A DNA stretch of 45,743 nt from UHGV virus genome UHGV-0129770; one strand, written 5' to 3'. Below, one piece after another: positions 1-45,400 of the stretch (positions are counted from its first letter, which is position 1; every line of letters begins with the position of its first letter). Below the pieces are notes generated by a model. The model was not told where the DNA came from. It was given only the letters and a program-made list of their open reading frames with translations, and ran no database searches. This DNA comes from a virus. The position numbers and the translations under genes are program-made.

Positions 1-93
1 TTCTTCTGCTGGCAGTACAACGTTGCTACCAGGTCCGTATGTTTCGCGCCACTGCTTGATTGTCAGTAGTCGCTCTTTGGTTATAGTGGTCAT
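1..93 (-). CDS. hypothetical protein, N-terminal fragment (gene runs off the window start)
   Basis: ATG at 93..91 overlaps (ATGA) the stop of the 90..299 ORF; reads MTTITKERLLTIKQWRETYGP...; absent from ORF track because truncated by window edge. Confidence 0.3.
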   Translation of the reverse strand, partial: MTTITKERLLTIKQWRETYGPGSNVVLPAEE

Positions 94-299
94 TTGTTAA
101 CCCTCAAAACTTTATGCCCGGGCGCAAAAGCACGCGTTTTGTCTTTGCTTATTCGCCAGCCATCCTTGCGCGCCTCTTTTGCACAGCCAGTCCATGACGT
201 ACCTATATACTCACCGAAGTCTGGCACTGGATATACACCTTCCGTGCACTGACGGCAGTCACAATAGAGATGCATTGTGTAACTTGCGGCAATAGCCAT
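90..299 (-). CDS. small Cys-rich hypothetical phage protein
   Basis: ORF track; member of contiguous minus-strand operon; paired Cys motifs (CDCRQC ... WTGC). Confidence 0.4.
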   Translation of the reverse strand: MAIAASYTMHLYCDCRQCTEGVYPVPDFGEYIGTSWTGCAKEARKDGWRISKDKTRAFAPGHKVLRVNK

Positions 300-300
300 A

Positions 301-765
301 TCACCCTCCTTTACCCTGAAGCATGGCGTCGCTCCGCTCTATACCATCCAGCGCGATTCGCAGTGCCTGAATTGTGGTAGTGCTATCGTTTGGGGCTATT
401 CCATATCGCTCGAATACAGCTAAATGGTTGCGCATAATCTCAGGCGTAAGCTCTTTGTAAGCATAAGCAAGAGGCTCTGATGCATTATCCGGCACAACCG
501 ACGCAGGCGCGGCAGCATAAACAGGAATAACGTCCGCTTGCTCTTTATTGCTTTCATCCGTTAAAGCCCAGAATAATTTCCCGGCCGGATGTTTGAAAAT
601 ATAAGCAACTGGTTCTGCACTATCAGCTTCGCGCCGCTTCTGTAGCTCTGCTGCCATTGCTCTCACGACTTCAACTGGTGCCCTTGCGGCAAACTCTATG
701 TTGGTGATCAGCTCATTAAGATATTGCTCGCTGGGATACTGTTTCTTATTGGTAATAGTGGTCAT
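301..765 (-). CDS. hypothetical phage protein
   Basis: ORF track; 1-nt gap to neighbours, same strand; no recognisable motif. Confidence 0.45.
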   Translation of the reverse strand: MTTITNKKQYPSEQYLNELITNIEFAARAPVEVVRAMAAELQKRREADSAEPVAYIFKHPAGKLFWALTDESNKEQADVIPVYAAAPASVVPDNASEPLAYAYKELTPEIMRNHLAVFERYGIAPNDSTTTIQALRIALDGIERSDAMLQGKGG

Positions 766-1277
766 GCCGCGTTTCCTTCTTTCTTATTAACAATTACACC
801 GTCATATATTTCATTAAGGTGCCCTCTCAACTCCATGCGCCTTAATGCAGATAACATGTAATCGCATTCAACCTGCTTATTTCCAGTAAATGGCTTATCG
901 TCAGGATTACCCCAACAGCAATTACCCTTGGGCCACCCATGTACTTTCCGTACTCTTCCGTTAACAACGTGAAGTAATCCCCAGCCAGGTGGTAAATCCT
1001 CAATTGAAATAATTCCCGGCTCACTAATAAAGAATCGCCAGTCGCCCATTCCAAGAGACGGATTTTTACGAAAACGCTTTTTTCTATCTGCCAACAAGTC
1101 AGCACGAGAACACTTCGCCTCTATCAGGCATGATGCTGAATTTCTGAATCCCATAGCATCTGGCTGTTCTCCGGTACTGGTTACAGCTATAAAGCGGTCA
1201 TGAAAACAAACCTTGAACCCGTTGCGCTTAAGGAACTTGTACGCAATCTGACAGAGTTCGCGGTGTGTTAACGCCAT
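762..1277 (-). CDS. hypothetical protein (possible nuclease-like fold, D...IEAK motif)
   Basis: ORF track frame 762..1349; start moved to in-frame ATG 1277..1275, which has an AAGGAG SD 6 nt upstream and directly abuts the stop of the 1279..1467 ORF. Confidence 0.4.
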   Translation of the reverse strand: MALTHRELCQIAYKFLKRNGFKVCFHDRFIAVTSTGEQPDAMGFRNSASCLIEAKCSRADLLADRKKRFRKNPSLGMGDWRFFISEPGIISIEDLPPGWGLLHVVNGRVRKVHGWPKGNCCWGNPDDKPFTGNKQVECDYMLSALRRMELRGHLNEIYDGVIVNKKEGNAA

Positions 1278-1278
1278 A

Positions 1279-1467
1279 TCACTCTCCTTTAGTGCGCAAG
1301 TGGTTTTTCCAGCGGTTTTGCGCCGCGCTGGGCTTTTTGCAAAAACCACAATCCATCATCCCGTAATATTTCATCAACCCCATCCGTCGGTTGCTGAGTC
1401 TCACCCACTGCCAGACGCCAGGAGCGTTTCTACGAACTAACAGAATCTTTGCTTTACGGTTTTTCAT
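1279..1467 (-). CDS. small basic hypothetical protein
   Basis: ORF track; ATGA start/stop overlap with an unlisted upstream 58-aa ORF (1464..1640), itself TAATG-coupled to the 1640..2434 gene. Confidence 0.3.
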   Translation of the reverse strand: MKNRKAKILLVRRNAPGVWQWVRLSNRRMGLMKYYGMMDCGFCKKPSAAQNRWKNHLRTKGE

Positions 1468-1639
1468 CGCTTTGCTCTCCTGCGTCTCTTTGCTGCTCGT
1501 CGTGCCGCTGCAATACCGGTATGGCGGCGCTTTGGTGCCGGGATGATGTTGTCAGCCATCAGGACATGTGGCTTTGCAATTAGCGCAGAAGCCCAAAAAC
1601 GAGTCGGGTACGGTAACAAGCCGATACATGCCACACGCA

Positions 1640-2434
1640 TTACTCACCTCCTTTGATGCGAATGCCTGCGGCGCGGATTGCAGCGATGACTTCAGAAACT
1701 TTGTATGCCATTACCGTTTGGTAATCATCGTGAAAATCTGTTCGATGAAGCATGCTGCTACGTTCCGGGAGCGATATTTCCCGAGCATCCAGTTCCTTAA
1801 CGCGTTCCTCCAGTTCGTAGACCCTGCATTGTTCTCTATCATCAATCAGATATAACCCAAGACATTCGCTTTCTACCCAACCGCCAAAATCATGATCGTA
1901 ACGCTCACATGAAAACTCACCGTCACCGTCCTTTGTTGGAATGGTGTAACTATCTAATGGGCCACCATATGTCGGCACATTTCCCAATGTTGGATGCTCA
2001 ATCCACATGAAAAATGCACGTCCGGTTATTGGGCAAATATCTGGCCGCCATTGGTTACGAACAGCCTTGGTTTCGGATAATTCTTCAGCGTGTTGTTTTA
2101 CTTCCTCAAGCTCAACTCTCAGCTTCCCTACCGTTAGCGCAATATCCTCGTTCTCCTGATCGCGGCGTTTTATGTATTGCTGGTTTCTTTCCCGTTCATC
2201 CAGTAGTGCCAAAGCAACCTTTGGGTTGAACGCGGCAACATAACGAGCGTTGTTCTCTGCATTTTTCTGTCCATCAAAGCCGGTCCATTTGATAACGTCT
2301 TCACATCGTTCATCACCGGGCGTGTGCACCGCATAAGTACCAGTATCCGTCGAAATAAATGCGACCCATTCGTCTGGTGTTGCCTTTTCTGCCGCCTCAC
2401 GCAGTACCTGATAGTCAATTGTCATTCTCGCCAT
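1640..2434 (-). CDS. Ea22-like modular phage protein, paralog 1
   Basis: ORF track; central coiled coil LTVGKLRVELEEVKQ and C-terminal ...IRAAGIRIKGGE tail shared with ORFs at 6878, 7516 and 8732. Confidence 0.5.
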   Translation of the reverse strand: MARMTIDYQVLREAAEKATPDEWVAFISTDTGTYAVHTPGDERCEDVIKWTGFDGQKNAENNARYVAAFNPKVALALLDERERNQQYIKRRDQENEDIALTVGKLRVELEEVKQHAEELSETKAVRNQWRPDICPITGRAFFMWIEHPTLGNVPTYGGPLDSYTIPTKDGDGEFSCERYDHDFGGWVESECLGLYLIDDREQCRVYELEERVKELDAREISLPERSSMLHRTDFHDDYQTVMAYKVSEVIAAIRAAGIRIKGGE

Positions 2435-3066
2435 CCTTCACAGTTGTAATCACGACAGCCTTCAAAATCATATGGGCTGTACTGCCAGGTGATTTTTCCG
2501 CAATGCGGACAATTCCAACGCACCTTCCCGCTTCGCGACTTCTTTCTTCTGTTCTGCTTTTTCAACCAGTCAGGCATGACCAAACCTGCGCCCTGAACCA
2601 TTGTTCTGCGGTTAAATTTATTGATATTGAACGTCCGGCGCTTTGCTGCATCAGCAATGGAAAATGGCAACCAAACTATTCCTGGTTCGTTTTTGTTGGC
2701 GACGCTAAAGATGGTCGCTTTACTGAAGTCATCTGTTGGCAATCCACCGTGTTGAAGCCAGTAAACATCGTTGCCGTTCCAGCTACCTTTTTTGTAGGCC
2801 ACATACGCAGTGCAATCTGACTCAATCAGGCTTTCTGTAGGGATGTACTGGCAATCAACGTGCCACACTGCCATTGCATCCACGCTATCCGCGCAAACAG
2901 GCTGATCGATATCTCGCCCACAATTCCAGGCTTTTTGGGCTTCTTCCAGCGTGTAAACATGAGCGCGATCGATATCAGAACTGTAACCATTGCCGTTATG
3001 GCAATGGAATGAGGCGTTATTACCCACAGTTTCACGCAAGCACATCAGGTAAAAGCGGTTATTCAC
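2422..3066 (-). CDS. hypothetical protein with C-terminal Cys-rich zinc-ribbon-like motif
   Basis: ORF track; C-terminus WNCPHCGK...CRDYNCEGW. Confidence 0.45.
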   Translation of the reverse strand: MNNRFYLMCLRETVGNNASFHCHNGNGYSSDIDRAHVYTLEEAQKAWNCGRDIDQPVCADSVDAMAVWHVDCQYIPTESLIESDCTAYVAYKKGSWNGNDVYWLQHGGLPTDDFSKATIFSVANKNEPGIVWLPFSIADAAKRRTFNINKFNRRTMVQGAGLVMPDWLKKQNRRKKSRSGKVRWNCPHCGKITWQYSPYDFEGCRDYNCEGWRE

Positions 3067-13009: not shown

Positions 13010-13321
13010 ATGAAAAAAATAGATTTCACTTATTCTGCCGCCACACTTGAGCGGCGCTTCACCCTCATTAGAGAGTTGGAGCTGTCAAAAGTCTGGTATC
13101 AAATCCTACTGGATGAAGAGTTTTCACTGATGGTTATAGCAGAAAAATTGGCTATGCCTAATGACCGGCACAAGGTCATAGCCAGCCTCGATCTGGTGAC
13201 AAACAGATACTGGGAAACAGAGGAACTACATGAGGCGGGAGTAATTCGTGACCTGATGGAGAATTCCGTTCCCCGCCGCTATCGTGCAGGGAACGGCATC
13301 TCCGTGGTTAAAGGTGTTTAA
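13010..13321 (+). CDS. hypothetical protein
   Basis: ORF track; convergent with the 13318..13710 gene. Confidence 0.35.
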   Translation: MKKIDFTYSAATLERRFTLIRELELSKVWYQILLDEEFSLMVIAEKLAMPNDRHKVIASLDLVTNRYWETEELHEAGVIRDLMENSVPRRYRAGNGISVVKGV

Positions 13322-13710
13322 AGCTCACCTGCGCGCTGTTTTTCAAGCACAGATTTAACATTTGGCGCTTTCCCTTTAAAAGAATGGAAAGTGCCACATT
13401 TTTCTGTTTTAACCTCGCGCAGAGCTTCGCCATCGGCGTTCTGCCATTGATGGGATAATGTCATATCACCGCGAGAAGGAACATCCAGCGAGTACAGCGT
13501 GTAAGTTCCCCCCATCTCCGCATACTCCTGGAACACATAGCTCATTACGTCAGATTCAGTTTTTCGGTGTGCGTTATCAACCTTATTCCCATTCAGAAAT
13601 ATGGCATCCGGATAGATTTTTATATCAAACCGACCGCACTTAACTTGTAAATTTCCGGCGCTCGCGATCAAAGGGAAAGACGCCAGTAAAGCAATAGCCA
13701 ATCTTTTCAA
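13318..13710 (-). CDS. secreted hypothetical protein (signal peptide)
   Basis: N-terminus MKRLAIALLASFPLIASAG is a typical Sec signal. Confidence 0.5.
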   Translation of the reverse strand: MKRLAIALLASFPLIASAGNLQVKCGRFDIKIYPDAIFLNGNKVDNAHRKTESDVMSYVFQEYAEMGGTYTLYSLDVPSRGDMTLSHQWQNADGEALREVKTEKCGTFHSFKGKAPNVKSVLEKQRAGEL

Positions 13711-13730
13711 TTCTGCCTCCGCTGCGTAAC

Positions 13731-14354
13731 TTATTGCCCGTATTTTTTACACCATTGCTCTGCCATTTGTTTGGCTAAAGGCCCGGCTACTGCACTGTAT
13801 TCTGCTGTTTTACTTTGCACACATGAAGCAGATGGTTTTTTATTTCGCTGCTCGGTTAGTTTGCGCTCATAAGCCATCATGCTATCGAACCCGGCAATAT
13901 CACTTTGGCGAAGCATTCCCTTTTTAACCAAAAATTGCTGCCCCTCGGGCACCAGCGCAAGCATAAAAAGTGGTTGTAATAACTCACCTAATCCTTGCTG
14001 GCGATACACTTCGAATTGCTGCCATCCCTGACTTAATCTGGAAAGAGTATCTTTGGTTGAATAACCTGTTTTTGTTATAGCTTTGTCCGTCAGATATGCT
14101 GTATATGCAAAAACGCAAAAGTCAGTTTTACCAATAAACTGAGTTCCAACAGGCCGTAATGGAATGCCCTCTCTCTTGCAAAAGTCCATAATTGCCGCTT
14201 GTGAATGATCCCCACCAGCGTTATTCATAACCTGCTGCCCTGCCCTGAATTGTGCAGGTAACGCAGTTGCATTGGCTGTATTAACAGATACGCATCCCAA
14301 CATAGCCGCGAGCGCGGTCCCTAAAACCCTTAACTTCACTACACCGTCCTTCAT
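13731..14354 (-). CDS. secreted hypothetical protein (signal peptide)
   Basis: N-terminal hydrophobic signal LGTALAAMLGCVSVNTANA. Confidence 0.5.
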   Translation of the reverse strand: MKDGVVKLRVLGTALAAMLGCVSVNTANATALPAQFRAGQQVMNNAGGDHSQAAIMDFCKREGIPLRPVGTQFIGKTDFCVFAYTAYLTDKAITKTGYSTKDTLSRLSQGWQQFEVYRQQGLGELLQPLFMLALVPEGQQFLVKKGMLRQSDIAGFDSMMAYERKLTEQRNKKPSASCVQSKTAEYSAVAGPLAKQMAEQWCKKYGQ

Positions 14355-22283: not shown

Positions 22284-23189
22284 ATGAGATCAGTCGCTTT
22301 CAAAAATATCTTCATCTATCGTCTTTCACGCGAAGTTAGCTGGGATACTGCAGAAGTAAATGCAGCCCTTAGCAAGTTTGTGTTTACCCCATGCGGTTCT
22401 CAGGATATGGCTAAAGCTGGTTGGACCCCCGTTCTTGGCGACAACCTCACCCATGAATACCAGGGTTTTCTTCTGATGCAGCATAAACGAGAGGAAAAAA
22501 TCCTACCTTCTCAAGTACTCAAAGAAGAGTTACAGAAAAAAATCCTGAAACTTGAAGAAGAGCAAGACAGAAAGCTGAAGAAGACCGAAAAAGATTCGCT
22601 GAAGGATGAAGTGCTTCACTCTCTTCTTCCTCGCGCTTTCACGAGAAAATCAGTAGCTAAAATCCTGATAGACCGAAGCAATCATCTGGTTTTTGTCGAG
22701 GCCAGCAGTGCTAAAAAAGCAGAGGATCAGCTGGCTTTGTTACGGAAATCGCTTGGCAGCTTGCCCGTTGTCCCCTTCTCTCCGAAAGACCCATTAGAAC
22801 TGACCATCACTGGCTGGATTAAAAATGGCTTCCCGAACGGTTTCCGTGCCGGTGAGGAAGCGACCTTAAAAGCATTGCTTGATGATGGCGGCGCGGTCCG
22901 CTGCAAAAAAGTGGACCTGCTATCCGACGAGATCATGAGTCATATAGAAGCTGGTAAGGTTGCAACCACAGTTGCGGTTAACTGGCAAGACCGTGCATTT
23001 TTCAGACTGAATGACGATATGAGTATCAAGGCTTTGTCGTTCAGCGACGAATTGTACGACCAGAACGACGATATTGATCGAGAGGATGTTGCGCAACGAT
23101 TTGACGCTGACTTTATCCTGTTTACTGCTGAATTATCCGCGATGTTCACTTCGCTAGTGGAGGCCGTTGGTGGTGAAGCAGAACGTTAA
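22284..23189 (+). CDS. rdgC: recombination-associated protein RdgC homolog
   Basis: Long colinear matches to E. coli RdgC as I recall it: [87 protein letters not shown]. Confidence 0.85.
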
Positions 23190-25461
23190 CCTTAGATATG
23201 GTTCAGTTTGCAGTGGAATTGAAGCAGCGAGCATTGCCTGGGAACCGTTGGGTATGCGTCCGGCGTGGTTTGCTGAAATCGAGCCTTTTCCATCTGCCGT
23301 TCTTGCGCACCGCTGGCCCCATGTCGCCAACCTTGGCGATATGACAAAACTTGCCAAAAAAGTCCTGGCTGGGGAAATCGAATCCCCTGATGTGCTCGTC
23401 GGGGGAACACCTTGTCAGGCATTCAGTATCGCTGGATTACGTGGTGGGCTTGATGATGAGCGTGGCGCGCTAACTTTAAAGTATGTGGAGCTTGCAAATG
23501 CAATTGACGACAAACGGGCTGAGTCATTTCTCAAACCAGCCGTTATCGTCTGGGAAAATGTCCCAGGAGTCTTGTCATCGGCAGATAACGCCTTCGGATG
23601 TTTCCTTGCCGGATTGGCTGGAGAAGATGCGCCATTCGAACCAGGTGCTCGACCTGAATCACGAAAAAGTAACGCGTTCTGGCGGTGGGATGTCAAAACC
23701 AGTTGCCATGCTCCAAAGTGGCCGCAGTGTGGTTGTATTTATGGACCGCAGCGAAAAGTGGCCTGGAGAATCCTTGATGCCCAATACTTCGGAGTGGCAC
23801 AACGACGCCGACGCGTGTTTGTTGTCGCAAGTGCTCGAACAGACCTCGATCCCGCAACGATACTTTTTGAGTTCGAAGGCGTGCGCCGGAATATTGCGCC
23901 GAGCCGAAAAAAGAAGGAAATCGCTTCCGCCATTATTGCAAATGGCGCTGCAATCAGTGGCGAAAGCCTAAATCCATGCCTACACGCTGACATGCCCCCC
24001 GGTATGAAATCGACGAAAGCCGTAAACGCTTTCAGGATGGCGGCATTTGGGGAATATATTGACGATGAAACCGCATCGACAGTAAAGGCAAGAGACTTTA
24101 AAGATGCCACTGACCTTGCCGTTTTTAGCAGCACAGGAGCAGGTTTTTGGTCAGAGGGGCATGGTACATTGCGGGCGCGTGAGCAAGAAAGCCATGAGCA
24201 TCTTGTTACATTAGCTTTTCCTGAGCGTATGAGCGGTACACAACATGCTGCAACTAAGAATACTTCACCATCTCTAATGGCTCAAAATCCAACAGCCGTT
24301 TGCTATGAAGTAAGAAACGCAGAAGTAGCTGTCCGCCGTCTTACCCCTGTCGAATGTGAAAGGCTGCAAGGTTTTCCTGATGGGCATACGTTGATCCCTA
24401 CGGAAAAGCGTAAAACAATTTCCTCAGATGAACTGGCATACCTTCGCAATCACTATCCAGATTTAAGCGAAGAAGAAGCCGCGATGCTCGCTGCTGACGG
24501 GCCGCGTTACAAAGCGATTGGCAACAGCATGGCAGTTCCTGTTATGCAATGGATTGGGTGTCGCATTCTTGCGACTGTGGAAGCTAAACAGCCAAAAACA
24601 ATAAATACCATTACCTACACAAGAAAACTCCGGACTCCGGATGAATATGAACGTCCGATCTTCAAATGGGTAGGCGGTAAATTCTCAGAGTTGCCTACAG
24701 TGCTTGAGCATCTACCACACGGCAAGCGGTTAATAGAACCGTTCGTTGGTGGCGGTTCTGTATTTACGAATGCAGGATTTCGCCACAACCTGCTTAATGA
24801 TATTAACGGTGACCTGATTAACTTCTATCAGACATTGCAGCGAGAAGGACATTCGCTCGTCACGCTGTCATATAGTTTTTTCCAAAATTACAACAACGCT
24901 GACGCTTACCTCGAAGTGCGTGAGGCATTTAACAGAGGAAAGTATGACCAGCTACATCATGCTGCCGCCTTTTTGTACCTTAATCGGCACTGTTTTAATG
25001 GCGTAACGCGGTACAACCAAAATGGCGAGTTCAACGTGGGGTATGGCAAATACAAAGCGCCCTACTTCCCACATGCAGAGATGGAGGCATTTTTGGCTGA
25101 TGACGTACTCAAAAACACGTCCTTTGTATCAGGTGACTTTGCTGGCGTCATCGAGGCGGCTGGTGAAGGCGATGTGATTTTTTGCGATCCGCCGTATGAA
25201 CCGCTGCCGGATACAGAAGGGTTTACCAGTTATTCAGGAAATAGCTTCCGTTTCGACGAACAGAAACGGCTGGTATCTCTATTGGTGGAAGCCCACCAGC
25301 GCGGCGCTAAGGTAGTGATTACAAATAGTGGTGCGCCAAACATCCGTGAACTATATGAAGGAAACGGGTTTAAAGTACATCATATGGCAGCCAGACGGTC
25401 GGTTTCCTGCAAGGCGTCAACACGTGTAGTTGCTAACGATATAATTGCAATAATGAAGTAA
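23167..25461 (+). CDS. bifunctional DNA methyltransferase (N-terminal C5-cytosine domain, C-terminal Dam-like N6-adenine domain)
   Basis: C5 motifs [27 protein letters not shown]; Dam-like [21 protein letters not shown]; no adjacent restriction endonuclease. Confidence 0.8.
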
Positions 25462-39385: not shown

Positions 39386-39400
39386 CGCTGGAGGCGCAGA

Positions 39401-40108
39401 GTGAGTATTTTCAGCATCGTTGGTAGAACGTTGACCACCGCATTGTCATTTAACACGAAATCATTCACCAGCAACCTCATTAGCGACATTCTTGATAAAG
39501 CCATATCAGGCGGCGGGGTAAGCGGGAATTACAGTAGCGATATTGCCTACGGGAAAAATATTGTTGCTGCCGCTATGCGTATCCGTTACGCCCAGGGGTG
39601 GCAGTGGACCGTTGAAGTGGATGGCCTGAACGGCTTCGATATGTTCGTGAAGGATATCACCTACAGCAGTGGAAACATTGAGACAGAAAGCAAGGTGATC
39701 GGCAGCGTAGAGTTCAGCAAGCCAACCTATGTTAGCGCCGGACCGGTCACTATGACCGTGAGGGATACCGAAGATGGCAAGATCATGGACTGGTTCAAAG
39801 AGCGTCGTTCTCGTGTAACAAATCCTGATGGAACAATAAACCTTCCTCCTGAATATCTGATGAAAATCCGTGTCTACCGGGTGACTCAGGACGGCGGAAA
39901 AGAACTGGAAGAAGAAATGCGCGTATTTCCTACTCAACTTGGGGAAATCACTCGCTCACGTGATCAGGTGTCAGAGTTCTTGTCATACCCAATCACTTTC
40001 CAGAAATACACATCCGCAGGCTCAGGTGTTTCTGCTTTGGTCAACGGTGCCGCTGGCATGGCTACAAGTGCGTTAAAGGGGGCTGTGAGTGGAGTGATCA
40101 AATTCTGA
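39401..40108 (+). CDS. hypothetical phage structural protein
   Basis: ORF track; GGAGG SD; last gene before the replicon module. Confidence 0.4.
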   Translation: MSIFSIVGRTLTTALSFNTKSFTSNLISDILDKAISGGGVSGNYSSDIAYGKNIVAAAMRIRYAQGWQWTVEVDGLNGFDMFVKDITYSSGNIETESKVIGSVEFSKPTYVSAGPVTMTVRDTEDGKIMDWFKERRSRVTNPDGTINLPPEYLMKIRVYRVTQDGGKELEEEMRVFPTQLGEITRSRDQVSEFLSYPITFQKYTSAGSGVSALVNGAAGMATSALKGAVSGVIKF

Positions 40109-40195
40109 ATAGCTTTAATTATGTGTGCTGGAGGGTTGCTCATTTCCCGTCAGCACCCACGCCCTCAACGATAGCGGGTAGGGAAGGTAGCGCAA

Positions 40196-40494
40196 TTTTG
40201 AGGGCATTTTTTACATCATTAATCCATCTGTAATGAAGGCATTCTTTACACATTTCAATAATATCAATCAGTTAACACAGTGAATGATAATAAAAAAGCG
40301 CAATAAGAATGCACGATACGCACGATATTGGTTGAGGGTGATTTTTACATAATCCTTACATATCAATATGTTATATAAAAACACAACTTGCCAATAACAA
40401 GATACATGCAATTAAGATGTAAAAATTGCCCTCAATTGCCGATCGTTAAGGGCAAATTCTACACCTTGAGAGGGGTGTAAAAATTGCCCTTAAG
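40196..40494. repeat. iteron-like repeats downstream of the rep gene, in both orientations
   Basis: TGAGGGCA at 40198, TGAGGGTG at 40333, inverted TTGCCCTCA at 40426, TTAAGGGCAA at 40446, inverted TTGCCCTTAA at 40484 overlapping the rep stop. Confidence 0.6.
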
Positions 40495-41245
40495 ACTGCT
40501 GATAGGTAAATTTTATCCTGGTAACTTTGCCGCCTTCCGTCACCTCTGAGAAGACTATTTTCATTTTTGTATTTTTTTCAATCTCTGCTACAGCCTTCGT
40601 TAAAAAACTTCTCTTAAATTCGGCATACCGCTGATAGCTTTTTGGTAACCCATAACGCTCCCGCATCCATTCGACGCCAAGTATGGCAAAGCCGCTTCCA
40701 TCATCCTTCCTGTACTGGCATAAGGACTCATAAAGCCGCATAGAATAAGGATTTGTAAGGCGAGATACTTCGGTAAAATTCAGCCTTGTGAATCTCTTAT
40801 CAAGCAGAGTAAAAAACGGCATGAGATATGGATTAAGATGAATAATGTAAGTCCCGCGCCGTGGTGAATAGGCATCCTTAATCATCCAAGGATAAGACTC
40901 ATAACTGTCTTCTGATTCGGTCGATTCATCAGGGTTATATATCGTAACTTTCTTCTCGCTAAGACCTGAAATGGCCTTACGAATATCCTTGCTGGCTTCA
41001 GCAGAGGGCAAATTATACATCTCTGCATATTCGTTGACCGTCAACTCACAGGCACCTGAACCAAGAACGCCATCCTTAGAAGCATAGCGAAGTCTTCCCA
41101 CCACAATAAACAACAGTCGCTTTTGGTCGCGAGTCAGGTGATAAGCAGCCTCCGTGATCTCATTGGCTTGTGCCAAACTACGACTAATAGGTGTCGCTGA
41201 CTCAATCAGGCTGACGGCTTTTGCTGTTAATTCCGCTCTGTTCAT
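40490..41245 (-). CDS. RepE/RepA-type (Rep_3 family) plasmid replication initiator
   Basis: ITEAAYHLTRDQKRLLFIVV, AEASKDIRKA, YESYPWMIKDAYSPRRGTYIIHLNPYLMPFF, NPYSMRLYESLCQYRKDDGSG are colinear with F-plasmid RepE as I recall it; start set to ATG 41245 (251 aa) rather than TTG 41278. Confidence 0.8.
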   Translation of the reverse strand: MNRAELTAKAVSLIESATPISRSLAQANEITEAAYHLTRDQKRLLFIVVGRLRYASKDGVLGSGACELTVNEYAEMYNLPSAEASKDIRKAISGLSEKKVTIYNPDESTESEDSYESYPWMIKDAYSPRRGTYIIHLNPYLMPFFTLLDKRFTRLNFTEVSRLTNPYSMRLYESLCQYRKDDGSGFAILGVEWMRERYGLPKSYQRYAEFKRSFLTKAVAEIEKNTKMKIVFSEVTEGGKVTRIKFTYQQS

Positions 41246-41268
41246 AACCCTGTGTGATCCTTCAAATG

Positions 41269-41388
41269 GTGAGGGCAATTTTTACATCACTTTGAGGGCA
41301 ATTACTACACCTTTTGAGGGCAAATCTTACACCTTCTGAGGGCAAATCTTACACCGATCGTATCTAATTGAGGGCAAATCTTACACCA
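41269..41388. repeat. array of five direct iterons upstream of rep
   Basis: TGAGGGCAA(A/T)TCTTACACC-like units at 41270, 41293, 41315, 41337 and 41369, about 22-bp period. Confidence 0.75.
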
Positions 41389-41530
41389 GACTCCTCTACA
41401 GCCCGCGCCACTACTGGCTCCAGCGACGCCTAAAAAGGATCTAAAAAGGATTAAAAATGGAAAAAGGTTTATAAAAATACTCTGTGTATATGTGAGTAGC
41501 GTCACTTAAGGTGTAAAAATCACCCTCAAT
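41389..41530. promoter_or_regulatory. putative origin region: AT-rich stretch bounded by an inverted iteron
   Basis: AT-rich run taaaaaggatctaaaaaggattaaaaatggaaaaaggtttataaaaatac at 41431..41480; inverted iteron GGTGTAAAAATCACCCTCAAT at 41510..41530. Confidence 0.45.
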
Positions 41531-41633
41531 AATCGCTTCTCGACCGGCAAAGATCTTCATTCAATCCCCATCGCAAATCACACACTCCCTATCCTCTGGA
41601 AAATGAACAGATACCTGCTTTTCGGAGGAATAA

Positions 41634-42455
41634 TTGAACATTCCAAAATTTCCATTGCCTTCCCGTCCTGAGACAGAAATTCAGTTCCACGCCCCTACCG
41701 TGAAGGATGCGCTGAAATATTCTGACCTGAACCCGGCAGAAGATGAGGCAACTACTACAGAGTACCTTAACTCTATGCAGGATGGTGAAATTAACGACAG
41801 TGCTAACTGGACAGTTCAGGATCGCAGAACTGCTCTTTGGTGGATATTTGTTAATTCGCGCCCCGATGCAGTAATGACCTACTCCTATGAGTGCAGTCAC
41901 TGCGGTAATACGCATCATGCAGATATTAACCTGAGCGACCTGGCCCAAACAGTAGAAATACTCACTGTACCTCCTTACGTGAAAACCAACGTACCAGTAA
42001 ATGGAGTACCAACTGACTGGATACTTAAACCATTAACCGGGAAAGGCGCGGAACTCCTTGAACGAATGCGAGCTTCACTTCCTGATATGAAAAGCCCCGA
42101 ATACAGTGCTGGCGTGGCACGGATGCGAATTGCTGAACTCGCTTTATGCACGGCGCTTGAAGACGATCCGGAGGACTTCACTCAGGCCGCTAACCGACGC
42201 TTTGACATCATTGAAAGCATGGCGCTTGAAACTGAATTTACTCCGCTTGTGGCTCGCATACAGCTTATGCAAAAAGACCTACGCCACGGCCTGAAAATGT
42301 CTATTGAGAGAGGCACAAGCCGACTGATCCTGCCTCCGCAACATTGCAAAAACGCTAAGGAGGGTGCAGATGTGACAACCACACTGTACGTCCCCTTTCT
42401 CAATAGAGAGTTTATCCCATCAATTAGATCTGAATGGATGGCTAACCATTATTAA
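41634..42455 (+). CDS. hypothetical protein (TTG start)
   Basis: ORF track; GGAGGA SD 4 nt before TTG; contains CSHCGNTHH. Confidence 0.45.
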   Translation: MNIPKFPLPSRPETEIQFHAPTVKDALKYSDLNPAEDEATTTEYLNSMQDGEINDSANWTVQDRRTALWWIFVNSRPDAVMTYSYECSHCGNTHHADINLSDLAQTVEILTVPPYVKTNVPVNGVPTDWILKPLTGKGAELLERMRASLPDMKSPEYSAGVARMRIAELALCTALEDDPEDFTQAANRRFDIIESMALETEFTPLVARIQLMQKDLRHGLKMSIERGTSRLILPPQHCKNAKEGADVTTTLYVPFLNREFIPSIRSEWMANHY

Positions 42456-42469
42456 CAACCTGACTCTAT

Positions 42470-45400
42470 ATGGATATCAGCCCGTTAGCGACGTTGAAAA
42501 ATTACCGCAATGGCGAGCACTCCATATGTCAAAAGCCCTGGAAGAAAAATACAAAGCTCAAGCTGGGAAACGTTGATCGCGCTGGTAAAAGAGAGGTTAT
42601 TTTGAAAGAGAATAAAGACCGTATCGCAATAATTGACGCTATTCAGGAGGCGAGCACAAACGAACTTAAAGCTCTTGCTGAGGTTAAAGACGCCATTCTT
42701 TCTGGGGCAAGCACCATAACTCAACAGGACGAAAGGCAAGGCAGAGTTAGCAACAGACTATCACGCAGGCGTAAAGACTACGAGCAAAGTACATCTGATA
42801 GCGTTAGAGATGTCCAAACTAACCCATATAAAAAACGTCTCCCTGCTAAAAAGGAAAGGGCACCGATAAACCAAACCGTGGACCGCTCTATCGTTGCAAC
42901 GAACACACCAGAAAGTGTTCGCTCCGTGCAATCACGTCAGACCATCCGAAAACCGGACGGTTTTATACCGGTAGCTGCTAATTCAGCCCCTCTTGAACCA
43001 CAATCCCCCCAAAGTCTAAAAGGCCCGCTGCGGGATAGTAGTGGACGTTTTGTATCCCAAAAAAGCAATGAGGATGTAGCCAAAAAAAAAGAATTGCAGA
43101 ACGCACGTAAAGCCGACGCAAAATTACAAGCTGGCTTTCTCAGAAAGCTAGGTTCCATTATGGGGGTAGATGGCAATCAGTCTTCCAGTGAAGAGTCTTT
43201 AACAAATGCAGCTGGTGTCGGTGCTGGTGGGCCGTTATGGATGGCGGCTCGTGGCATGTACGACATAACTAAAGAGATCACAGGTAAAGCAGAATCTCTT
43301 AAAGAATGGGTAGAAAAGGGAAAAAAAGAAACATCAACCTCGAAAGCGATATCACCAGTAATTACTTATCCGGCGGCGGTGAATTCTCAAAAAGCAACAT
43401 CTGCAAAAGCGTTCAATAACGCTGTTGAGACAAAATCCGCACAAGCAGTAGAAGAGCAAACCAAAATTCTTCAGACCAATGACAACAAAATAATTGATGG
43501 TCTGGAAAATGTCTCCGACGAAGTAGTTAAGCTACGCAAATCAGTATCTTCTGGGAATAAGTTCGGCTTAAGTGATCTCTGGAGAAATCGAGCAAGCAGA
43601 AGAAATAAAATCAATATTGGCGATCAGGCTGGTAAAAATAAACGGAACAAACCGAAAAGGAAAGGTCGCAATCTGGGGAAAAAAGCCCTTTCTGTTGGTG
43701 AAAAAGCCGCTGCCGGAACCGCTGCTGCTGGAGCTGGTGCCGGAGCTGCAAAGACTGTTAAAACAAAGGTTAGTAAAGCCAAAGACATCAGCACCACAAG
43801 CGACGCATCTAAGGGTATTGCTAAAGAAACAAAAAACACAGCAAAGGCAGTTAAGCCAGCAGGTGTTGTTGCCGAAGAGGCCACAATTAAAACAGGTGAA
43901 ACTGTTGCAAAGAAAAAAACCGAATCCGTAGCCCTCAAAAGTGCTGCAAAAATAGGTGTTAAATCAGCTGCTTCTACAGCTGCAAGAGCTATCCCGATCA
44001 TCGGATCGCTAGCTATGGCGGGATATGACGCTATAGATGGTTACACTGATACAGATGCGCAAAAGGCAGCCTTTGGATTAAGTGACGATGATGCTGTATC
44101 CGAACAGCAAAAAACGGCTTACGCAACAGCTAATGTGCTCGATATGGGGGGCTTGGTGTCGGGCGCAACGAACTTGATAGGGAAAGGAATTTCTGCGCTA
44201 GGATTTGAAAGAGCAGGTGAAAAACTTCAGAATTTTGATACCGGAGATATTGCTCGTGGTGTTAACGGCGCGGTAGATATCACCAAATCTGTTTTTGGTA
44301 GCCTTAAGGATACATTTTTATCCACTGACGAAAACACGAAACAAGTAAAAAAAGCTGTTGAAGACGGCACCAAAAAAACTGTCGATGCGATTCATTCTCT
44401 AGGTGAACAATTACAAGGTGGGCGTAATGGCGAGGATGGAGTTGGTGAGCACGGGTATACTTCTCCAACTGAATTTAGTGCACCTGCCAACAACACCATT
44501 GCAGCGGATCTGAATATTGGCGGCAGCAACGCTAAAAACCGCAATTACCGAAATAATAATCTCGGCAATCTTGTTTTTGCCAACCAGGAAGGGGCGACGC
44601 TGGAATCGCCAAATGCAAAAGGTGAACAACGTTTTGCGCGATTTAACACACCTGAAGAAGGGATCAGGGCACTGGCAAACCAGGTTTCCAGCTATTACAA
44701 CGGCACCAGTGCCGCAGCGGGATATCAGAAGTTACAGACGGTATCCAGCATCATTTCAAAATGGGCACCGCCAAATGAGAACAATACTAACCAATATATT
44801 GATAACGTCAGTAAATATCTTGGTGTATCGCCTAATGAAAAAATAGATGTCAGCAAACCAGAGGTTATGACGCAATTAGTTCGTGCAATTGCGACGAAAG
44901 AAGGCGGAAATCCGGCAGTTAATAATGAGTTCATTAAGAACGCACTTGGAGCATTTAACACAAACACTGGTCGATGGGAGGGGCAATTCTCTGATGAAAC
45001 ATTGGCGCGGATTAATAAAATTCAGAAAGAAAATGGTGGTCAGCTAATTGCCCGCGATTCGCAATATAGTGTTGGTCGCAAGGTAAAATATGCTAATGGA
45101 AAATCTCCAGCTCAACCAGTTTTGAATGCCGTTCCGACAGCAACACAACAGCCAATTGAGGTTGCACAACATGCCCAGGCAGTCAAAAAGCCACAAAAAA
45201 CAGGTAACCAACCACAACCGATTAATCCAGAGAACGCTGATGTTAATACCGGCTCTCCATCGAGTTTGCTTGAGCGGTTAATCGCAATAAATGAAAGCGG
45301 AATCAGTGGTGCAAGTAATTTATTTGGCGGCGCGGCTACCAGCCTTGCTGGAACAAGTCTGGACCTGGTAAAGGATTTTGCGTTGGCTACTTCGTTTGGT

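Follow-up and report, generated by a model that had tools for sequence, protein, structure and literature searches.

A RepE-type plasmid replicon between the tub and pmgB homologues of a D6-like phage-plasmid, with a pair of P1-type iterons at its edge

We examined a replicon locus in a 45,743-nucleotide stretch of viral DNA (UHGV virus genome UHGV-0129770), and "the window" below means this whole stretch. At the locus, homologues of the P1 genes tub and pmgB enclose a cassette that carries a RepE-type replication initiator gene (rep) and its 19-bp iterons, and two sites resembling the iterons of the P1 initiator RepA lie at the tub side of the cassette (Table 1). Positions 39400-42500 of the window were 99.1% identical to Escherichia phage D6 (NC_050154) and 99.9% identical to an Escherichia coli plasmid (NZ_CP115379). 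The same segment matched 124 plasmid records in PLSDB, nearly all of them non-mobilizable and about 90 kb in size, from Escherichia, Salmonella and Shigella hosts. Among 5,426 complete E. coli genomes, the RepE-type cassette was found on plasmids in 88 and on the chromosome in none. In the D6 annotation, the gene flanked by the homologues of tub and pmgB is listed as a putative plasmid replication initiator (pfam01051). Phage D6 (orf42; NC_050154) and D6-like plasmids such as pYU39_89 carry the same module between the same flanking genes, and the repB gene of pYU39_89 has been described as "associated with iteron sequences" (PMC6799933). The replicon itself is already known, as an annotated member of the well-understood mini-F family. 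The initial annotation of this DNA had placed an iteron replicon between virion genes, and its position between the tub and pmgB homologues agrees with this.

The GC content was 0.31-0.43 within the cassette compared with 0.46-0.52 in the flanks. In the P1 genome only 14 bp separate tub from pmgB, and the P1 plasmid replicon (repA, incC, incA) occupies a separate site by parA, between parA and upfA. A sensitive blastn search of the window against P1 gave zero DNA homology, and the comparison with P1 was made through annotation and protein only. In a megablast comparison with phage D6, window positions 1-3063, 13233-14303 and 23189-24631 were unmatched and the remainder was 92-98% identical in blocks. 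These unmatched segments and the blockwise identity indicate that the window is a mosaic relative of D6 and not D6 itself.

The product of rep contains the Pfam domains Rep3_N (3.4e-29) and Rep3_C (9.8e-16) and is 50% identical to F RepE across 228 aa (E 2e-86). RepE entries were also its best matches among solved structures (1REP at E 1.4e-73). RefSeq labels the protein "RepB family plasmid replication initiator", and MOB-suite typing assigns the D6-type replicon to rep_cluster_1704. The start codon is the ATG at 41245, as in RefSeq. An alternative start at the TTG at 41278, taken from a list of open reading frames (ORFs), was ruled out by the RefSeq start and by conservation of the ATG in relatives and in F. 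We did not detect meaningful similarity of the rep product to P1 RepA, F RepFIB RepA or p0111 Rep, and the comparison of P1 RepA with the D6-type Rep reached only E 0.057, which is not significant. A p0111 identity (PlasmidFinder) was rejected, as the pO111_2 Rep (WP_000888906) matched the window Rep at 28% over 64 aa (E 0.2), and tblastn of the p0111 Rep against the window gave no match. This rep is the only Rep gene in the window. No P1-RepA-type gene was found in the window by tblastn, and the phage records found to have a RepA homologue did not include D6. The note "similar to P1 gene repA?" attached to H7U15_gp085 in the D6 record (NC_050154) is misleading, since the protein is a RepE homologue.

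The iterons of the RepE type were mapped with a position weight matrix (PWM) built from 11 copies, using 200 Markov-shuffled windows as the null (top score 20.7). Eleven strong 19-bp sites (scores 22-31.5) and two weaker ones (40234-40252, score 16.2, and 41003-41021, score 18.7) were confined to 40199-41528, and no site elsewhere in the 45.7-kb window scored above 11.5. The consensus is TGAGGGCAAATCTTACACC, and the window iteron written out is GGTGTAA(A/G)A(A/T)TTGCCCTCA. Repeat finding and the matrix both recovered the five direct iterons upstream of rep and the mixed-orientation copies downstream that the initial annotation had described, with the consensus as written there. The upstream copies start at 41270, 41293, 41315, 41337 and 41369, with start-to-start spacings of 23, 22, 22 and 32 bp, and 24 bp lie between the copy nearest to rep and the ATG. 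The downstream copies start at 40199(+), 40234(+, weak), 40333(+), 40416(-), 40447(+) and 40474(-). The pair at 40447-40465 and 40474-92 forms a 20-nt inverted repeat (90%). This repeat had been placed across the rep stop codon (40490-40492); the repeat is real, and as its second arm overlaps the stop codon it lies at the codon and not across it. The further inverted copy that had been said to close the AT-rich putative origin is the one at 41510-41528, beyond the AT-rich region (41430-41479), and it is 100% complementary to 40332-40349. Lineages about 84% identical share the origin and the positions of the iterons with the window but differ in the spacers. The AT-rich region is unchanged in related lineages, and the position of the DnaA boxes reads ATATCCAC or TTATCCAC in relatives.

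The weak site at 41003-41021 lies inside the rep ORF, where it codes for E-M-Y-N-L-P-S; F RepE has IFGLTS at the equivalent point. Relatives with a Rep 57-78% identical retain the site (L056 4228-4246, L058 4216-4234 and L059 4225-4243). It may be an internal Rep-binding site, or it may reflect mere protein-coding constraint. The same iteron type was found in relatives with Rep proteins 57-78% identical to that of the window and was not found in a relative 77% identical to F RepE. This restriction indicates that, within the mini-F family, the module represents a sub-clade of its own.

The likeness to the F mini-F replicon (RepE/ori2/incB-incC; IncFIA) that had been proposed from the iteron core extends to the initiator and to the origin. 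F RepE is also a 251-aa Rep_3 protein with WH1 and WH2. The F ori2 iteron is TGTGACAAATTGCCCTCAG, its half AAATTGCCCTCA and the TCACCC variant are common to F and the window, and 16 of 18 iteron positions match once a 1-nt gap is allowed. The window iteron has one additional base between the GTG and TTGCCC halves, and it reads GGTGTAA where F has TGTGACA. Because of these differences in spacing and sequence, F iterons score nothing with the D6-type matrix and a gapped alignment is needed. The difference in iteron spacing suggests a specificity separate from that of F. The origin follows the order of F ori2, with a tandem DnaA-box position, TATTTTTATAA, an AT-rich/GATC segment, a G+C-rich spacer and direct iterons. 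The AT-rich region aligns with its F counterpart, TATTTTTATAA included, and the TTATCCACTTATCCAC of F corresponds to the degenerate CTACTCACATATACAC of the window. The origin iterons have the same orientation relative to rep in both replicons, and both have a second iteron cluster past the rep stop codon.

The two replicons also differ in several respects. The window has five origin iterons compared with four in F, as well as the inverted copy beyond the AT-rich region. The second cluster is of mixed orientation in the window and uniform in F incC. F has a segment of about 70 bp in which an operator made of inverted copies of the 8-bp iteron half overlaps the repE promoter, and this segment has no counterpart in the window. 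The DnaA boxes of the window are degenerate at the position of the TTATCCACTTATCCAC of F. No sopABC-type partition locus adjoins the replicon in the window, and the partition genes of D6 are about 10 kb off. Unlike F, the host of the window replicon is a phage genome.

From the homology of the cassette to mini-F, and from P1 where the layout lacks an operator, we infer a replication function for the cassette and roles for its individual sites. The element would be a theta-type, iteron-controlled replicon in which Rep monomers bind the five direct 19-bp iterons. With the help of host DnaA bound at the degenerate tandem boxes, Rep would open the adjacent AT-rich region, and replication would start there. 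The six downstream iterons would titrate Rep and handcuff the origin iterons, which would keep the copy number low. Given the lack of an F-type operator and how close the iterons are to the ATG, it is probable that the iterons contain the rep promoter. Iteron binding would then probably also autoregulate rep, as in P1. P1 (RepA, oriR, incC/incA; IncY) shares this layout of origin iterons, rep and mixed-orientation control iterons with no separate operator.

The second set of sites at the locus is of the P1 type. The 15-mer ATGTGTGCTGGAGGG (40121-40135) occurs once in the window, and alignment with known iterons, the check that the initial annotation had suggested, showed that five of the 14 annotated P1 RepA iterons (NC_005856) have exactly this core. 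The expected number of exact matches to a 15-mer in 2 x 45.7 kb is, by arithmetic, about 8.5e-5. A P1-type matrix was built from the 14 P1 iterons, for which authentic sites ranged from 18.9 to 33.0 and the top null score was 20.7. The P1 iteron consensus GATGTGTGCTGGAGGGAAA was matched by 40120-40138 (arm 1) and by 40143-40161 (arm 2). The score of arm 2, 16.3, exceeds the 95th percentile of the maxima per shuffled window. A convergent pair is also found in P1 incA (iterons 7 and 6). P1 has fourteen RepA iterons compared with the two P1-type sites here, its replicon lies between parA and upfA and not between tub and pmgB, and a RepA-type gene is absent from both the window and D6. With no RepA gene in the window and two sites only, the P1-type pair is a remnant and not a replicon. 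E. fergusonii CP099330 retains the pair around a different spacer, and CP042620 has a degenerate version of it. Replicons whose RepA is 72-73% identical to P1 RepA have been reported to carry P1-like iterons and to be IncY-incompatible (PMC10999674).

We searched IMG/VR with the Tub protein and obtained 33 loci. In distant lineages (Tub 53-65% identical), the gap between tub and pmgB resembles that of P1 in being short and lacking a rep gene. The gap of D6-like lineages is occupied by a RepE-type, a P1/IncY-type or a p0111-like replicon, always on the same strand. Three loci with Tub and PmgB 97-99% identical to those of the window (L024, L025 and L027; Tub 99%) have a P1-type replicon there. 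It encodes a RepA 84% identical to P1 RepA and shows the complete layout of P1, with GATC repeats, a DnaA box and iterons of the incA type (seven) and of the incC type (five). Arm 1 of the window has its counterpart in the first incA-type iteron of these three cassettes, which is at the same position and shares the left flank CTTTAATTATGTGTGCTGG. By blastn, homology between the window and L024 stops at 40135, within this first iteron, and restarts at 41578. The 7-bp spacer of the window pair, TTGCTCA, reappears after iteron 2 of the IncY cassette, and the E. fergusonii variant keeps a homologue of the central convergent iteron pair of the IncY cassette, spacer included. A matrix scan found no RepE-type iterons in the IncY-type cassette. 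In PLSDB, nine complete plasmids matched the IncY-type cassette at 99% identity or more, and two plasmids had a p0111-like cassette in a D6 backbone.

The p0111-like occupants of the gap (L032, L034, NZ_CP085065 and CP042620) encode a Rep 85% identical to the pO111_2 Rep. Beside tub, these elements still have the final ~25 nt of the RepE-like ORF together with four to five iterons of the RepE type. Three layers follow each other in CP042620: the degenerate P1-type pair, four RepE-type iterons and the resident p0111-like replicon. The occurrence of occupants with leftover iterons indicates that the slot is a site of replicon swapping in which fossil iterons persist. All three cassette types have the same right junction, 41577/41578. 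Just beyond it, the 19-bp block at 41581-41599, TCACACACT(C/A)CCTATCCTC, is invariant at 18 of its 19 positions across all cassette types and lineages aligned, and it may be a regulatory leader of pmgB or a preferred crossover site. A P1-type late promoter before pmgB (CAAGTGACT ... TAnnnT) was also considered and rejected; the motif is absent there and is not enriched in the window.

Two further variants of the gap were observed. In NZ_CP116989 (L012 1-1457), and also in NZ_LT906557, an IS200/IS605 element (tnpA plus the gene for the RNA-guided TnpB) lies between tub and the RepE-type iterons. The P1-type pair and the first iteron are lost from NZ_CP116989 through the insertion, although the 92-kb plasmid remains a complete circle. 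L035 (7132-8530; IMGVR_UViG_3300009011_000012), whose Tub is 80% identical, has a P1-type replicon about 2.4 kb downstream of tub, with a RepA 85% identical to P1 RepA and with 11 iterons of the incA type and five of the incC type. In the part of L035 that was retrieved, we detected no homologue of pmgB.

We consider it very likely that window positions 40136-41577 are the annotated plasmid-maintenance replicon of a D6-like phage-plasmid of the P1 family, and that the P1-type pair is a leftover of an earlier IncY-type cassette. The gap between tub and pmgB would then be a replicon-exchange slot, in which an IncY-type cassette was present first and was afterwards replaced by the RepE-type cassette. 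The pair at 40120-40161 would be what remains of the tub-proximal, incA-like end of the displaced cassette. As the replicon of P1 itself lies elsewhere in P1, the predecessor was an IncY-type cassette of the D6 lineage and not the P1 replicon in place. A P1 RepA iteron relic left by replicon replacement had been proposed for this site with low confidence. The exact core match, the sibling IncY-type cassettes and the breakpoints make relic-by-replacement the best-supported reading; the single site that had been proposed turned out to be a convergent pair.

Several observations weigh against this interpretation. A lineage about 85% identical (L007, L008, L010, L031 and L033) has the RepE-type cassette without the P1-type pair, so that the fossil is not found in every lineage, and any order of events between lineages is tentative. 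In a different P1-like element with a Rep 78% identical and another genomic context (L047/L053), six to seven P1-type sites are interleaved with RepE-type iterons, an arrangement that a simple one-off fossil does not predict. For the replicon itself, the DnaA boxes match at only 6/8 and 5/8 positions, the strict DnaA box TTWTNCACA had no match in the origin region, a sigma-70 consensus scan gave no rep promoter in or near the iterons, and no experimental dissection of the D6-type replicon was found in the searchable literature.

Table 1. Features of the tub-pmgB interval and its flanks in the window
Feature	Position	Strand	Basis and remarks
tub homologue (P1 tail tube gene)	39401..40108	+	D6 annotation "similar to P1 gene tub"; left flank of slot
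Orphan P1-RepA-type iteron, arm 1, TATGTGTGCTGGAGGGTTG	40120..40138	+	PWM 25.0; 15-nt core as in five P1 iterons
RepE-type replicon cassette, 1442 bp	40136..41577	-	blastn breakpoints against IncY-type siblings L024 and L027
Orphan P1-RepA-type iteron, arm 2, CGTGGGTGCTGACGGGAAA	40143..40161	-	PWM 16.3; convergent with arm 1
Downstream array, six mixed-orientation RepE-type iterons, incC-like, putative copy control	40199..40492		Repeat finding and matrix
rep, 251-aa Rep_3 initiator, RepE homologue	40490..41245	-	Pfam, blast and PDB matches
Iteron-like sequence in rep ORF, AGAGGGCAAATTATACATC	41003..41021	+	PWM 18.7, below highest null score
Five direct origin iterons, GGTGTAAGATTTGCCCTCA in rep sense	41270..41387	-	Repeat finding and matrix; nearly invariant across lineages
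G+C-rich spacer, iterons to AT-rich region	41388..41429		Read from sequence; aligns with F ori2 segment
AT-rich putative unwinding region, repeated (A/T)CCTTTTTAG, one GATC (41438-41441)	41430..41479	-	Read from sequence
Degenerate tandem DnaA-box pair, CTACTCAC ATATACAC	41484..41499	-	Alignment position of TTATCCACTTATCCAC of F
Inverted iteron, TCACCC variant, outer edge of origin	41510..41528	-	PWM 26.1
pmgB backbone leader with 19-bp block TCACACACTCCCTATCCTC	41578..41633	+	Block conserved in all cassette types
pmgB homologue	41634..42455	+	D6 annotation; right flank of slot

The L047 and L053 arrays (L047 3161-4790; L053 9661-11277, from ENA ERZ15184914 NODE_74 and Logan SRR19487725) were considered further. 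This element contains a tandem unit of 179 bp in 2.2 copies (89% identical), and the P1-type sites in the array form three convergent pairs. Two more P1-type sites lie upstream of an origin that has good tandem DnaA boxes, TTATTCACTTATCCAC. No P1-type RepA was found within 10 kb on either side of its rep gene, and no complete plasmid in PLSDB has an L047-type cassette. Among RepE-like relatives, P1-type sites were present only in L047/L053 and were absent beside Rep proteins 71%, 63%, 57% and 52% identical to that of the window (L056, L058, L059 and L061). The L047 and L053 arrays could have arisen by a similar replacement followed by tandem duplication, or could consist of orphan iterons kept for a purpose, for example as decoys. 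The P1-type sites of L053 diverge about as much as the units that contain them, which is compatible with neutrality. A stronger conservation of the orphan sites was considered and rejected, as the data are too few and the sites were found with the same matrix that scored them.

Other explanations of the P1-type pair have to be weighed against a leftover of the IncY-type cassette. That the resemblance of 40121-40135 to P1 iterons arose by chance is of negligible probability. A 15-mer search allowing three mismatches was indeed not enriched (1 found compared with 1.05 expected), but an exact 15-mer match is expected far less than once, as computed above, a second inverted site follows 4 bp away, and the pair has positional homology with full P1-type arrays in sibling elements. 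The score of the second site, the positional homology and the breakpoints against the sibling IncY-type cassettes together refute a chance likeness. A role for the pair as a hairpin (in DNA or RNA) where the tub and rep units converge, a 3'-end stabiliser or insulator whose iteron likeness would be historical, is very improbable. The predicted folds do become stronger from the window (-16.9 kcal/mol, z -1.9) to CP042620 (-21.1, z -3.8) and E. fergusonii (-32.7, z -5.3), and two substitutions in CP042620 harm the iteron consensus yet improve stem pairing. The fold in the window is nevertheless ordinary, as 10 of 200 shuffles fold at least as well and any inverted repeat folds. There is no U-tract, a terminator scan was blank at 40120-40161, and the element is missing from a whole lineage with the RepE-type cassette. 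It is also decidedly unlikely that the pair came with the RepE-type cassette from an L047-like donor and that its homology to the first incA iteron of the resident served as the left crossover; the pair would then be a recombination scar, or portable homology, and not a leftover of the resident cassette. Such an arrival would fit the left breakpoint (40135/40136), which falls exactly in the iteron core, and the P1-type pairs of L047 and L053, which lie directly upstream of the TTTTGAGGGC iteron with the elements ordered as in the window. The unusual CAGCACCCA variant of arm 2 is also found at an L047 site. The spacers point the other way, as the E. fergusonii relic has the spacer of the iteron 4/5 pair of the D6-lineage IncY cassette, the TTGCTCA spacer of the window matches the IncY cassette too, and those of L047 are unrelated; other RepE-like relatives (Rep 57-71% identical) moreover lack P1-type sites.

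A further explanation is retention of the pair as a decoy. In this proposal the pair would titrate or handcuff the RepA of IncY (P1/P7-like) phage-plasmids, an incA-type incompatibility to which the carrier would be immune through RepE. We regard it as unlikely. Arm 1 would be suitable for such a role, as each base of 40120-40138 is found at that position in at least one authentic P1 iteron and its score is in the authentic range, but two sites at about unit copy number add little to the 14 iterons of P1. The E. fergusonii lineage keeps both arms (17/19 and 15/15 core matches) though the spacer differs. In CP042620, on the other hand, both arms are degenerate, with the invariant G14 gone from arm 1 (GGCAGG), and the pair is missing from one lineage with the RepE-type cassette and displaced by IS200/IS605 in NZ_CP116989. 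The eight to nine such sites around the RepE-like replicon of L047 and L053, where no P1-type RepA was found within 10 kb on either side, would suit a decoy, as would the leftover RepE-type iteron arrays beside p0111-type replicons, which show the same pattern. The P1-type sites of L053, however, differ about as much as the rest of the 179-bp unit. IncY and D6-like elements do share hosts (bioRxiv 10.1101/2025.09.12.675607). A wider proposal, that the gap is an exchange slot with a fixed junction at which each swap keeps the old control iterons as working decoys with a one-way incompatibility, is about equally unlikely. Under that proposal the orphan iterons could also supply short homology that seeds the next swap, and L047 and L053 could represent an elaborated form.

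If the pair is a leftover of the IncY-type cassette, the single gap between tub and pmgB would record successive replacements as ordered fossils, from IncY-type to RepE-type to p0111-type, and we infer the direction of replicon switching from this order. Similar elements are known to carry alternative replicons at one locus, and about 17 switches between IncY and p0111 have been inferred in Salmonella P1-like elements (PMC11165635; PMC9603915). The D6-like locus differs from these in that it lies between tub and pmgB, the RepE-type cassette is a third partner, and the displaced iterons remain as ordered fossils. We found no mention of the P1-type pair, of the alternative occupants of the slot or of the layering of fossils in the searchable literature. 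What the compared sequences show directly are the identities, the positions of the iterons, the breakpoints and the occupants of the slot. The D6-type replicon is neither IncY nor p0111, and common plasmid-typing tools omit the replication gene of the D6 group (bioRxiv 10.1101/2025.09.12.675607). As D6-like backbones may carry any of three replicons, typing by rep gene will misassign them. The locus also prompts one to ask if orphan iterons still act as binding sites for the displaced initiator and influence the coexistence of phage-plasmids.

Two of the RepE-like relatives have unusual arrangements of their own. In L058 (4745-5869; JGI 3300073836 Ga0596924_0000134), whose Rep is 63% identical, the control array downstream of rep is unusually long and comprises at least 24 D6-type iterons across about 1.1 kb. 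L059 (4001-6472), on the Nissabacter sp. SGAir0207 plasmid CP028040, combines two replicons of the same two families that meet at the window locus, and its RepE-like gene has a product 57% identical to the window Rep. A RepA of the P1/RepFIB type, 47% identical to P1 RepA, is encoded about 0.8 kb away in convergent orientation.

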